From the IMG/VR virus record IMGVR_UViG_3300027608_000011: a stretch of DNA of 64,000 bases, one strand, 5' to 3'. Positions within the stretch are counted from its first letter, which is position 1, and every line of letters begins with the position of its first letter. The position numbers and the translations under genes were made by a program. Shown here in pieces: positions 41,138 to 45,710 of this stretch. Under the pieces are notes generated by a model, which saw only the letters and a program-made list of their open reading frames with translations, searched no databases and was not told where the DNA came from. Source of the DNA: a virus. Its lineage: Duplodnaviria; Heunggongvirae; Uroviricota; Caudoviricetes.

Positions 41138-41593
41138 ATGGCTGGCACAGTTATCGCAACAGAAAAAGATAAAACAGGCGCTGATGTTACTATCAGCTGG
41201 GCTAAGAAAATTGGCGGAAGTATTGTTACTCCGTTTTTTCTACGAAATTATGCGGCGTTAATAGAAAACGGACATTCTGCCTCCTTTATATTTGGAACTA
41301 ATAACAGTAAAGCAGTTTATGCTGTCATTGACAACACGGTGGTAGGTGCAATTGTATATGATACACAAGAAGACACTTATAAAACTGCATGGATTGTATT
41401 AAGTTGTATCGACGACAACTACCGTCGTCGTGGAATATATATGATGCTTCATAAACATTTCGAAAATGTTGTTAAAAACGAAGGTAGTAAGCGTCTGGCT
41501 AGTCATGTGCATGTTGATAACGTTATAAGACAAGCCAGTTGTGAAGCAGTTGGGATGAAGCCTGATTTTTTAAGAATGGAAAAAACACTATGA
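41138..41593 (+). CDS. GNAT acetyltransferase
   Basis: IDDNYRRRGIY acetyl-CoA motif; VHVDN. Confidence 0.85.
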   Translation: MAGTVIATEKDKTGADVTISWAKKIGGSIVTPFFLRNYAALIENGHSASFIFGTNNSKAVYAVIDNTVVGAIVYDTQEDTYKTAWIVLSCIDDNYRRRGIYMMLHKHFENVVKNEGSKRLASHVHVDNVIRQASCEAVGMKPDFLRMEKTL

Positions 41594-42435
41594 CATTAAA
41601 AGAAGAATTTGAATTAAACGGTTTCTTAGGACCGTTAGAAATTATGTCTCGAGAAGAGGCCGCAGAGTTTTGCAAGTTAGTCATGCAGGCTGAAGAAAAT
41701 ATTAAACTAATGAAAAGTGATTATCGTTGCAAAAGTAATGTATTATTTCCATTTGTAGATAAAATTAGTAAGCACCCAAAGTTAATAGAATATCTATCAG
41801 AGTTAATAGGACCAAATATACATTGTTGGGATACCCTATTTTGGGTCAAACATCCCGGTGATAAAAAAGACGTTAGCTTTCATCAAGATGCCACTTATTG
41901 GAATTTTGATAAAAAACATTTGGCTGTTACTGCTTGGTTTGCATTTAGTGATGTAACTGAAGAACACGGAAGTTTAGAGTATGTCAAAGGTAGCCATCGA
42001 GTATTCCAGCACAGACATAAAGATGTTAAAACAAACACTAATTTATTAATGAGGGGACAAACTGTAGATATTGATGTCCCAAAAGAACGTATTAAAACAA
42101 CCGTGCCAGCCGGACATGTTATGTTGCATAGTCCTTATATTATACACGGTAGCGCAGATAATCAAGCAAATACACCAAGAGTAGCTATGGGTATGATTTT
42201 TGCGTCCACTGAATGTAAACCCATTTTAAATATAAGTCCAGAAAGTACTGTAATAGTAGCTGGTGAAGACACATATAATTATATGTTACATGATCCTGCT
42301 CCTTGTGGAGACTGGGACTTAGATTTAAAAAACTGGCAAGGTGCTTACGATCGTCAGCATATTAACTATTATGAAATGGAACAAACTCCTGCCAGTCCTT
42401 ACAATAAATTTAATAAAGAAAATGCAACTGTTTAA
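41590..42435 (+). CDS. PhyH-family 2OG-Fe(II) dioxygenase
   Basis: FHQDATYW, GSLEYVKGSH, IIHGS...PR. Confidence 0.9.
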   Translation: MTLKEEFELNGFLGPLEIMSREEAAEFCKLVMQAEENIKLMKSDYRCKSNVLFPFVDKISKHPKLIEYLSELIGPNIHCWDTLFWVKHPGDKKDVSFHQDATYWNFDKKHLAVTAWFAFSDVTEEHGSLEYVKGSHRVFQHRHKDVKTNTNLLMRGQTVDIDVPKERIKTTVPAGHVMLHSPYIIHGSADNQANTPRVAMGMIFASTECKPILNISPESTVIVAGEDTYNYMLHDPAPCGDWDLDLKNWQGAYDRQHINYYEMEQTPASPYNKFNKENATV

Positions 42436-42955
42436 AGATTGGCGAGAATGTGATATCAGTGAAGATCCAGACTTAGTGTTAGATAAAACTAAGTCGTATT
42501 ACTTGCATGCCAAGGCTTGGCATTTTAAAGGATATATAGGTGGAACGCATTCCTGGTTTGCATGTTATAATACCCAGCATAAAAACTGGCTTGTAGCAGA
42601 AGTCACAGACCGAGAAACATTAGATGTGCAACAATGTCGCACTATATACAGTGGGGCACAAGATTTAGATAATATCGAAGAACGTGCCGCATTTATCAGC
42701 GACCGTTCATATAACGGTAAATGGTTTGGTAATAAAGTATCTATTGTAGATAGTTGTCCTGCCATTGATTACAGTGACTTACTTTATTCAGTTAAAAAAT
42801 ATCCTATTGAAAAATTCGAGTTATTAAATTATAATTGCAATACTTTTTTATCTTACCTCATATGGGATTTACAGTTAGACTTAAAACGGCCAATTAGATC
42901 AGTTGGTTTTAAAAACACACAGTGGTGGAATAGACATTATGAATTTGAGATTTGA
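42422..42955 (+). CDS. Permuted papain-like peptidase/acyltransferase (PPPDE/DUF3750-like)
   Basis: THSWF catalytic His preceding LLNYNCNTF catalytic Cys. Confidence 0.65.
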   Translation: MQLFKDWRECDISEDPDLVLDKTKSYYLHAKAWHFKGYIGGTHSWFACYNTQHKNWLVAEVTDRETLDVQQCRTIYSGAQDLDNIEERAAFISDRSYNGKWFGNKVSIVDSCPAIDYSDLLYSVKKYPIEKFELLNYNCNTFLSYLIWDLQLDLKRPIRSVGFKNTQWWNRHYEFEI

Positions 42956-44021: not shown

Positions 44022-45082
44022 AAGAATATTTGTGGATTAATTGGAGTAATCTAAATTACACAGATATGCCTGTGCGCGGTAGCTTCAGAAATGTTGTGGG
44101 CAATTATGAATTTCCCGTTGATCGTTTTAATATGTTAGATAATGTACTTGAACTTCCTTGCCGGAACATATTGCAAGATCCTAAGTTTACATTGACAAAT
44201 TTAACAAACGATTGGGAAGATCGATATTATTCTGTATTAGATAGTATTGCAGATAATGTGTTTACTATTGCAAATGGAAGAACAATTGTAGTTACATATA
44301 GTGGCGGTATTGATAGTGTTTCTGCATTAATATCTTTGCAAAAACACAGCAAGTATAAAGAATACCTAGAGCAGGGTAAATTTAAAGTAGCATTAACTAG
44401 TACCAGTATAACAGAATACCCCGAATTATTTTATAAAAGTATACTACCTAATATTCCGTTGATTCCATTGGATTATGTATCATTGATGAACGATGACGAT
44501 GTGATGTTAGTGACCGGTGACATGGGAGATTATTGTATTGGATCCAGCGACACTCTACGATTTTCTGCTATGCAACCAGATTTAGATTTGATGGCGCCAT
44601 GGAGAGAAATCATTCCTCTTATATCAAAAGTTAAAGGATCATCGTTATACTTACATACCATGGAAACATTAGCTAGTAAAGCACCGTTTGAGATATGTTC
44701 CATTAATCAATTATTTTGGTGGACTGCAAATTCATTAACTGGTGTCCAAGATGATTTGTTTCGACCTTGGTATTGGAGTACTGGCGCTAAAATAGAAGAT
44801 GCCATTACACAAAATAAAATTTTTAGATTCTTTTATGATGCGGCAATGATGACGTTTAGTTTTGAATATATGAGTACTAATCCAGTATATCATAATTATA
44901 TAGATAATAAAACGTGGCAAAAAAAGTACATTGTAAACTCAACAAAAGATAGTAGTTATATGAATAAAGGAAAGATATTCAGTCAACGATTAAGTTTACG
45001 TCATGTATTTAAAACTTCTATATATATTGAAAACGGTATTATAAAATTTGGCACAGATGTGGGTACAATAAATGGCTCTTGA
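44018..45082 (+). CDS. Second PP-loop ATPase (Asn-synthetase C-domain-like)
   Basis: VTYSGGIDS; VTGDMGD. Confidence 0.7.
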   Translation: MKEYLWINWSNLNYTDMPVRGSFRNVVGNYEFPVDRFNMLDNVLELPCRNILQDPKFTLTNLTNDWEDRYYSVLDSIADNVFTIANGRTIVVTYSGGIDSVSALISLQKHSKYKEYLEQGKFKVALTSTSITEYPELFYKSILPNIPLIPLDYVSLMNDDDVMLVTGDMGDYCIGSSDTLRFSAMQPDLDLMAPWREIIPLISKVKGSSLYLHTMETLASKAPFEICSINQLFWWTANSLTGVQDDLFRPWYWSTGAKIEDAITQNKIFRFFYDAAMMTFSFEYMSTNPVYHNYIDNKTWQKKYIVNSTKDSSYMNKGKIFSQRLSLRHVFKTSIYIENGIIKFGTDVGTINGS

Positions 45083-45710
45083 GCGAATTAAATTATTAGT
45101 AGACCAATATTCAGGACAAGTAGTTTGGCTCAGTTATCGTTTCGATGACAGTACTCCTATGCACGATCCTACTCTTAATGTTTATCACTACTCCGGTAAT
45201 ATAGAAATTAATGCATGGGGGTTATATTCTCAATATAGGTTATTTTATAAACCAGATGCATTGAAGTTATATCATTCTTCATATAGTTTATTTGACGACG
45301 ATATTCAATTGCGTAGAGCAAAATGTATAGCTATTAATCAAGTTAATAATTCAATTATGTATCAGTATGAAAAGTTTCATTTAGGGAATGAAAAGTTCTA
45401 TGCAAATATAAATTACCATAATTGGCCAACAATTTTTAGTCATGCACACAATTGTTCAATTGAGGATGCCGCAAAATTAGTTAAATTTAAAAAAGATGAG
45501 ATTGAATGTGGCATGCATACTTTAGAATCATTCAAGTACTTGTTTATTAATAACATCAAAAATGCCAAGACCTTGGCTGAAATAGACGTGTTATTTAATA
45601 TAGCATGTGTAGAGTTACTAAGCACAAACACTATTACAATATCACAATTAAAAACAGTTTCTGCAGAAAATTTAGTTACTATTGCTAATAAAAAGAAGAA
45701 AAATGTATAG
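45072..45710 (+). CDS. Hypothetical protein with a helical C-terminus
   Basis: 212-aa ORF overlapping the previous gene. Confidence 0.7.
   Translation: MALERIKLLVDQYSGQVVWLSYRFDDSTPMHDPTLNVYHYSGNIEINAWGLYSQYRLFYKPDALKLYHSSYSLFDDDIQLRRAKCIAINQVNNSIMYQYEKFHLGNEKFYANINYHNWPTIFSHAHNCSIEDAAKLVKFKKDEIECGMHTLESFKYLFINNIKNAKTLAEIDVLFNIACVELLSTNTITISQLKTVSAENLVTIANKKKKNV

Follow-up and report, generated by a model that had tools for sequence, protein, structure and literature searches.

The 64,000-nt stretch of DNA analysed here (IMG/VR virus record IMGVR_UViG_3300027608_000011, referred to below as the window) derives from an uncultured freshwater T4-like phage and harbours, on its plus strand at positions 41138-45710, a cassette of six overlapping genes, A to F. 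Two of the encoded proteins, D and E, represent two new stand-alone branches of asparagine-synthetase-type amide-forming enzymes, and in the cassette itself two portable modules are fused, B-C-D and (A-)E-F. By analogy with characterised enzymes we tentatively favour, at slightly less than even weight, a function as a small-molecule, amino-acid-derived amide pathway whose product would be made early in infection.

The genes code for a GNAT N-acyltransferase (A, 41138-41593, 151 aa), a PhyH-family Fe(II)/2-oxoglutarate hydroxylase (B, 41590-42435, 281 aa), a permuted papain-like thiol enzyme in which the His precedes the Cys (C, 42422-42955, 177 aa), the two stand-alone AsnB-type synthetases, or PP-loop ATP pyrophosphatases, of which the second is highly divergent (D, 42939-44021, 360 aa; E, 44009-45082, 357 aa), and a fast-evolving orphan protein (F, 45072-45710, 212 aa). 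The tight coupling described in the first-pass annotation, which had been made from the sequence without database searches, was confirmed, the overlaps being 4 nt (A/B), 14 nt (B/C), 17 nt (C/D), 13 nt (D/E) and 11 nt (E/F). Two gene starts were corrected: the program-listed GTG at 42341 (C) and TTG at 42903 (D) were replaced by ATG at 42422 and ATG at 42939, respectively, because the latter preserve the coupled overlap pattern.

Asparagine-synthetase-like folds and partner enzymes

In Pfam, D and E yield only weak N-terminal PP-loop matches and no Asn_synthase match, and the weak sequence matches of their PP-loop region are to QueC, TilS, MnmA and ThiI. They were placed by an exhaustive structural search with AlphaFold models, which have a pLDDT of 96 for D (alignment n = 67) and 92 for E (n = 31). 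The closest structures to D are human AsnS (VIA Z 13.3), E. coli AsnB (13.2), beta-lactam synthetase (13.0), carbapenam synthetase (11.8) and the hydroxyamidotransferase TsnB9 (11.2), in agreement with the top Foldseek matches for this protein, and those closest to E are AsnS (12.1), TsnB9 (12.0) and beta-lactam synthetase (11.6). Across the AsnB group, Z ranges from 13.3 to 11.2 for D and from 12.1 to 9.4 for E, with 213-263 aligned residues and a sequence identity of 8-12%. ArtA is also found among the structural matches of D and E (Z 7.9 and 6.4), and no lasso cyclase occurs among those listed for either. As modelled, both proteins fold nearest to the synthetase domain of the AsnB/beta-lactam synthetase clade, so that the initial guess of an Asn-synthetase-like nature holds at the level of the fold. 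A sugar-amidotransferase of the PseA/WbuX type seems disfavoured, there being no NCBIfam match at E ≤ 1 and the solved N-acetyl-sugar amidotransferase 8wex reaching a Z of only 5.8 against D.

The PP-loop motif is invariant in both families (LSGGSDS across 20 homologues of D, YSGGIDS across 31 of E). In D the residues K275, K291 and E296 are invariant as well, in E the motif TGDxGD, and each protein has a conserved N-terminal motif of its own (NHFKWG in D, PVDRF in E). Since the PP-loop begins at residue 69 in D and at residue 98 in E, a glutaminase domain of ∼190 aa cannot fit in front of it; no GATase match was found in Pfam either, and the earlier description of two divergent SGGxDS proteins without a glutaminase domain is borne out. 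A search for longer homologues revealed no fused forms of D, which is weak evidence. When the two families were compared by hhalign, only 40 columns around the PP-loop could be aligned, and D and E are not close paralogues. They are represented by 76 (D) and 62 (E) metagenome clusters, none of them named, and E has at least 320 relatives in IMG/VR. The neighbouring family c24 is, according to hhalign, another PP-loop family. In Pseudomonas phage Cygsa01 (L226; PP179332.1, 11421-13570) two PP-loop genes are annotated as MnmA. They are ∼22% identical to distant members of the E family and are the only genes matched by two distant E relatives, which is uninformative, and the MnmA names are probably automatic over-annotation.

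The resemblance of the PP-loop region to QueC, TilS, MnmA and ThiI bears on the idea, contained in the first-pass annotation, of a nucleotide substrate: in phage DNA or in tRNA, a base bearing a carboxylate or carbonyl (for example of the 7-deazaguanine or wobble-base type) might be amidated or aminated by D and E as a counter-defence. The same idea draws on a separate operon of the window with QueC-like and 2-oxoglutarate-dependent enzymes, noted in the first pass, on the location of the cassette within a DNA-metabolism operon, and on Achromobacter phage Motura, for which BFVD lists 'asparagine synthase' and QueC under adjacent accessions. We consider it highly improbable. The AsnB clade outscores the nucleic-acid-modifying clades in both searches (Z 13.3 versus ≤ 10.3 for D, 12.1 versus ≤ 7.2 for E), the former limit also holding for the other PP-loop clades as a whole (NAD synthetase, TilS, QueC, MnmA, LarE), and AsnB-type synthetases are not known to act on nucleic acids. 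In addition, a search of four related phage records, one of them of 173.9 kb and rated 100% complete, revealed no tRNA-guanine transglycosylase/DpdA (PF01702), while the controls were positive, and none of the six proteins matches an anti-phage defence model of PADLOC at E ≤ 0.01.

Protein A is assigned to the GNAT family by its match to Pfam Acetyltransf_1 (35.5 bits versus a cut-off of 20.7, E 1.4e-8), and its PHROG matches are generic acetyltransferase families (E 8.5e-9). Protein B matches Pfam PhyH with 73.8 bits (cut-off 22, E 3e-20). Its top solved relative is 6zyk, deposited as 'Monooxygenase' (E 3e-23), followed by human PhyH, SnoK, SyrB2 and CytC3; a literature search on 6zyk/6zyl returned unrelated papers only. 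In B, the conservation of the facial triad and the 2-oxoglutarate-binding Arg (H98-x-D100, H186 and R197) is at least 95% across 21 sequences, and the presence of HxD instead of HxA/G indicates an enzyme of the hydroxylase rather than the halogenase type. B is unusually constrained: its identity remains at 64-80% in most of the loci in which that of D has dropped to ∼45-55%.

In protein C, an invariant His (H43, in GGxHS) precedes an invariant Cys (C139, in NCNTF). A Pfam search at E ≤ 0.1 gave a match to DUF3750 (PF12570) below its gathering score (17 versus 25 bits), comparison with the PDB sequences by profile gave chance matches only, and the protein-language-model neighbours in the ESM Atlas are the DUF3750, IcsB_M and TseH clusters. 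DUF3750 has been classed as papain-like with Ser as the nucleophile (PMC10318531). C is thus a Cys-bearing relative of DUF3750 within the papain-like superfamily and no member of DUF3750 itself. With Pfam support for A and B and the invariant His/Cys pair of C, the first-pass assignment of these three proteins to the GNAT, PhyH and permuted H..C papain-like groups is upheld, and the catalytic residues of the cassette (the PP-loops, HxD..H..R and the His/Cys dyad) are conserved across relatives, so that the loss of catalytic residues, one of the two outcomes against the pathway named in the first pass, was not observed.

Protein F, an apparently obligate neighbour of E, matched nothing in Pfam, PHROGs, NCBIfam, PADLOC, PDB and the ESM Atlas. 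Its relatives form 63 representative clusters among 1.84 billion proteins, nearly all of ∼200 aa or shorter fragments and stand-alone. A search of the whole library with hidden Markov models revealed no fusion or named relative, a Pfam search with 45 members was likewise empty, and no conservation is seen among the C-termini of the relatives. PHROGs holds no family for B, C, D, E or F. No match was found among 50,697 GenBank phages with the cassette DNA (blastn) or with D, E and a marine relative of D (tblastn), and a phage-specific literature search found nothing. None of the six genes is accordingly matched in a cultured phage, and C, D, E and F reach no curated family above threshold.

Modular recurrence and genomic setting

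Co-occurrence of the genes was surveyed from three independent seeds, D, C and E. The D seed yielded 42 viral and 71 metagenome loci, and the full syntenic cassette was found on seven contigs, five from IMG/VR and two from metagenomes. Other loci contain the same genes in reshuffled order: D-E-F-B-C-D-D in L006, A-D-E-F in L007, B-C-D in L008, L063 and L065, B-C-D-A in L010, D-A-B-C-D in L062 and D-B-C in L069, D being duplicated in L006 and L062. In the loci collected with the C seed, B is present in 16/16 and directly upstream of C in 14/16, and nearly all of them carry a gene for a D-type or other PP-loop synthetase. With the E seed, F was found directly 3' of E in most loci in which E is at least 38% identical, and two loci (L135, L136) have the arrangement GNAT-E-F with no D adjacent. 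The cassette is hence composed of B-C-D and (A-)E-F, and the GNAT gene travels with either module. The same set of genes turns up on many independent contigs and in several places of the genome, which rules out chance as the origin of the arrangement, and the co-occurrence elsewhere on which the first-pass annotation had made its pathway depend was indeed observed. In other T4-like lineages the modules are located after nrdA/nrdB (L007) and after gp33-gp59-gp32 (L012, L014).

Several loci have gained further enzymes. A class-III aminotransferase gene has been inserted into the B-to-D block, behind B or C but ahead of D, in three of them (L014:6788-8008, L012:6770-8014 and L225:7910 onward); its product is closest to 4-aminobutyrate (GabT-like)/2-aminoadipate transaminases (E 2e-146, below the equivalog cut-offs). 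In L012 and L014 the aminotransferase gene is preceded by an unannotated gene for 164 aa. A 525-aa protein of the flavin-dependent Trp_halogenase family (E 2e-102) is encoded between D and E at L009:9115-10692. The combination of GNAT, PhyH and class-III aminotransferase was also considered as a possible ectoine pathway and rejected: the EctD matches are weak (E 1e-4), the 164-aa gene has no ectoine-synthase match, and the aminotransferase is nearer to GabT than to EctB. A functional link between D and GNAT is indicated by an 825-aa fusion in a Bdellovibrionota metagenome-assembled genome (L051:9023-11500), in which an N-terminal D-like domain (hhalign 99.8%) is joined to a C-terminal GNAT. 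The middle ∼370 aa of this fusion are without assignment, a separate D-like gene lies upstream, and similar long genes are present in L049 and L053.

In the window the cassette is bordered on the plus strand by gp46 (39361-41136), which by its translation encodes the Rad50/SbcC-like recombination nuclease subunit, and by a gene for a SegE-type GIY-YIG homing endonuclease (45759-46184; Pfam SegE_GIY-YIG, E 2e-30). The gap between the gp46 stop and the start of A is 1 nt, and 48 nt lie between the stop of F and the endonuclease gene. The gp46 DNA matches, in blastn, the SbcC-like genes of PA5oct-type jumbo phages, and gp46 has 80 relatives in IMG/VR. Among the ∼57 IMG/VR loci with a gp46 relative and at least 3 kb of downstream sequence, the cassette is present only in the five whose gp46 is at least 73% identical; in the remaining ∼50 contigs (gp46 53-67% identical) gp46 is followed directly by SegE or a gp26-like gene. 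Where SegE is present in the relatives lacking the cassette, it usually starts ∼200 nt 3' of gp46. The cassette is thus an insertion limited to the closest subclade, with the SegE-type endonuclease as a possible mobiliser of the insertion site. The GC content is 0.325 for E and 0.297 for F, compared with 0.35-0.38 for A to D and 0.378 for the whole window. The low values of E and F agree with a separate origin of the E-F module.

A sigma-70-type promoter (TTGACA-17-TATAAT, 37212-37240, plus strand) with 12/12 consensus positions, the top score of the scanned region, is located directly upstream of the late sigma factor gene gp55 and is followed in the 3' direction by gp55, a small open reading frame (ORF), gp47, gp46 and the cassette. 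Between this promoter and the end of the cassette, the only terminator-like site on the plus strand is a weak one at 38817. Judged by the consensus match only, the promoter likely drives a gp55-gp47-gp46-cassette operon, and these matches suggest that the cassette forms the end of a DNA-metabolism operon of early or middle type. Early expression would follow from the 12/12 promoter in front of gp55 together with the missing gap before A. Virion modification, a purpose which the first-pass annotation had proposed, fits this position poorly. An 11/12 match to the sigma-70 promoter also occurs within C at 42807-42835, ∼100 nt ahead of the start of D, where the two modules border on each other. 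Divergent from gp55, on the minus strand at 36515-37144, a gene kept in relatives encodes a protein of 209 aa whose GRFQPFHLGH motif is characteristic of HxGH nucleotidyltransferases (nicotinamide mononucleotide/cytidylyltransferase-like).

Beyond the close variants, marine and freshwater viral contigs commonly carry more remote relatives of D and E (23-30% identity), which are part of long variable islands. These contain tandem GNAT-like genes and genes of the Asp/Asn beta-hydroxylase family, together with fatty-acid desaturase-like/hydroxylase-like and glycosyltransferase-like genes, an SDR and a RimK/LysX-like ATP-grasp gene. Radical SAM genes of the twitch/SPASM-like and B12 types are present as well, as is a family marked by a PRSGTT sulfotransferase-like motif. 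The D homologues in Bdellovibrionota metagenome-assembled genomes are flanked by the same families. A conserved island of ∼15 kb, no member of which matches a cultured phage, was found in marine viral/metagenome contigs (L018-L031, L082, L094, L101-L107), its order being two to three GNAT-like genes, one or two PRSGTT-motif genes, a D-like gene, SDR, two Asp/Asn-hydroxylase-like and two glycosyltransferase-like genes, plus a desaturase-like gene. In another arrangement (L013, L081, L086, L088, L111), a twitch-domain radical SAM gene and a conserved gene for a 210-aa unknown protein (c7) are situated upstream of a D-like gene of ∼435 aa; three to five radical SAM paralogues in tandem and a GNAT gene come after it. 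A 231-kb relative (L058; G002:C1:97000-116900) harbours an island with E-like, desaturase-like, GNAT-like, short D (311 aa) and Asp/Asn-hydroxylase-like genes and several unknowns. It adjoins the counterparts of the glycosyltransferase-like genes found at 304-4047 of the window, namely of those at 304-3064, at a position beginning just beyond the window start. The phage from which the window derives probably carries the same island just upstream of base 1.

Such islands are one reason to consider an envelope or glycan substrate, with D and E amidating, or adding amines to, uronic acids, peptidoglycan stem peptides (meso-diaminopimelate or isoglutamate) or lipid-linked sugars, and with acetylation and hydroxylation as the next steps, so that the host surface or a virion glycan would be remodelled. 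AsnB homologues amidate meso-diaminopimelate and uronic acids (LtsA/AsnB1, WbpS). Distant D relatives of phages and of Bdellovibrionota are accompanied by glycosyltransferase-like (c4, c22), SDR, sulfotransferase-motif, LpxO-family (Asp_Arg_Hydrox) and FA_desaturase/FA_hydroxylase genes; the glycosyltransferase-like genes of the window belong to c22, which also occurs in distant islands, and it is beside these very genes that the 231-kb relative has its D/E-containing island. Nevertheless, such a substrate seems to us rather improbable. The sugar enzyme 8wex scores 5.8 against 13 for AsnS and beta-lactam synthetase, families of sugar pathways are neither inside nor beside the close variants of the cassette, which have gained a GabT-like transaminase or a halogenase instead, and the cassette is located in an early-type operon, distant from the late glycosyltransferase genes.

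Candidate chemistry and the peptide alternative

The chemistry of a small-molecule amide pathway can be outlined by analogy with the solved relatives and with published asparagine-synthetase-like (AS-like) enzymes. D and E would each adenylate a carboxylate with ATP via the PP-loop; transfer of the acyl group to an amine or to ammonia would then give an amide, as in asparagine synthetase, beta-lactam synthetase and TsnB9. With no glutaminase domain in either, the nitrogen would have to come from free ammonia, from an amine co-substrate or from a donor set free by C. C, which is translationally coupled to D, might act as an amidohydrolase or transferase in this step, a role we put forward purely by inference. 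A would N-acylate an amino group and B hydroxylate a C-H bond. The substrate would most likely be a small amino-acid-derived metabolite, because the recurrent GabT-like aminotransferase and flavin halogenase are typical of amino-acid-derived pathways. AS-like enzymes act on small carboxylates as well as on peptide C-termini (PMC13622209). What the infected cell would form, early or in the middle of infection, is an N-acylated, hydroxylated (pseudo)peptide amide, which might serve as an antimetabolite, chelator, solute or signal.

Several points weigh against this interpretation. AS-like enzymes, namely lasso cyclases, FzmA and ArtA, also act on ribosomal peptides (PMC13622209), and very short precursors can escape ORF calling. 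The distant D/E relatives (23-30%) co-locate with glycosyltransferase, SDR, beta-hydroxylase-like, desaturase/hydroxylase-like and radical SAM genes, and a related phage has a glycosyltransferase-adjacent D/E island just beyond the point corresponding to the window start. The wider D/E enzyme family may therefore also act on glycans, lipids or peptides.

The peptide option deserves separate consideration, given that the first-pass annotation had framed the cassette as maturation of a ribosomally synthesised and post-translationally modified peptide (RiPP), with lasso peptides as the model. The target of D and/or E would then be a ribosomal peptide, or a protein of the phage or its host, in which a carboxylate at the C-terminus or in a side chain is amidated, cyclised or derivatised in another way. 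Leader removal or processing would fall to C as the protease, hydroxylation of a residue to B and N-acetylation to A, and F might be a recognition or scaffold protein. The AsnB-type fold of D and E and the presence of a papain-like thiol enzyme are compatible with such a scheme, as are the AS-like nature of lasso cyclases, the activity of FzmA on a long-overlooked 22-aa precursor and that of the nitrile synthetase ArtA on peptide C-termini (PMC13622209). ArtA is, moreover, among the structural matches of both synthetases, the SPASM/twitch-type and B12 radical SAM and RimK/LysX-like ATP-grasp genes of distant islands are typical of peptide tailoring, and F is an unexplained, fast-evolving partner of E.

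Searches for the remaining components of a peptide pathway were negative. The overlapping cassette leaves no room for a small ORF, only 48 nt follow F, and an ORF of 48 aa situated after F in L007 has no homologue in the window or in the loci collected by then, so that the earlier remark that no precursor peptide is evident stands. None of the six proteins, F included, has a Pfam match (E ≤ 0.1) to a RiPP recognition element (RRE)/PqqD or to a B-protease of the transglutaminase type, and the Asn_synthase match expected under the lasso framing is missing as well. Furthermore, the order of catalytic residues in C (His..Cys) is permuted, unlike that of lasso B proteases, the recurrent aminotransferase is nearest to transaminases of free omega-amino acids, and the C-termini of F are not conserved. 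On this evidence the RiPP/lasso framing is not sustained, and modification of a peptide or protein appears unlikely. A small amino-acid-derived substrate is what we prefer.

Significance and comparison with known systems

Auxiliary genes of phages are usually single enzymes borrowed from the primary metabolism of the host. In this case a complete cassette of several enzymes travels as one unit from one phage lineage, and from one insertion site, to another. Enzymes of the D/E type are of interest as ATP-dependent biocatalysts for amide-bond formation, and if the product is a small molecule, the cassette would be a clear case of natural-product-like biosynthesis encoded by a phage. It would also provide an entry point to the larger unannotated islands of marine and freshwater phages and Bdellovibrionota with their radical SAM, hydroxylase, desaturase-like, GNAT and glycosyltransferase genes. 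A broader proposal, which we regard as conceivable but on the whole doubtful, is that aquatic T4-like phages and predatory Bdellovibrionota hold a large unexplored reservoir of portable biosynthetic islands built around glutaminase-less AsnB-type synthetases. The present cassette would then be a complete example of the smallest kind, and the small N-acylated, hydroxylated pseudo-peptide amide that it makes in the infected cell would be new. Should this be true, the product could serve as an antimetabolite, chelator or signal in host takeover or competition, which would amount to genuine phage-encoded secondary metabolism.

The nearest known enzymes are AsnB/ASNS, beta-lactam synthetase, carbapenam synthetase and TsnB9, with which D and E share the SGGxDS PP-loop, the fold and, as expected from these, the adenylation of a carboxylate leading to an amide or lactam. 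D and E differ from this group in lacking the N-terminal nucleophile (Ntn) glutaminase(-like) domain, in their identity of 8-12% and in having no Asn_synthase Pfam match. At the level of pathways, the N-acetylglutaminylglutamine amide route employs the GNAT/ligase Ngg and the AS-like amidotransferase AsnO, and dapdiamide-type pathways combine AS-like amidotransferases with 2-oxoglutarate oxygenases. As is proposed for the cassette, a GNAT and an AS-like enzyme of the Ngg/AsnO route cap a small amino-acid-derived molecule by N-acylation and amidation. The cassette differs by the absence of an ATP-grasp ligase, and AsnO retains its glutaminase domain; the likeness concerns the logic of the pathway.

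Lasso-peptide maturation, which relies on a McjB-type protease, a McjC-type cyclase and a precursor, has in common with the cassette the pairing of an AS-like adenylating enzyme with a cysteine enzyme. The cassette differs in having no precursor or RRE, a papain-like enzyme of the permuted class, two AS-like enzymes in place of one, and additional GNAT and PhyH proteins. FzmA and ArtA are, like D and E, AS-like, and put unusual nitrogen nucleophiles on a carboxylate (PMC13622209), but their systems also comprise an RRE protein and a short precursor peptide, and neither component turned up in the cassette. C shares the His-before-Cys order and an NCxxF-type Cys motif with permuted papain-like enzymes of the DUF3750/PPPDE/LRAT type; its DUF3750 score lies below the gathering threshold, and its invariant Cys stands in place of the canonical Ser nucleophile of that family (PMC10318531). 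Compared with all of these systems, the cassette unites known superfamilies in a new, mobile, phage-borne combination, which includes two new stand-alone AS-like branches and an orphan partner.

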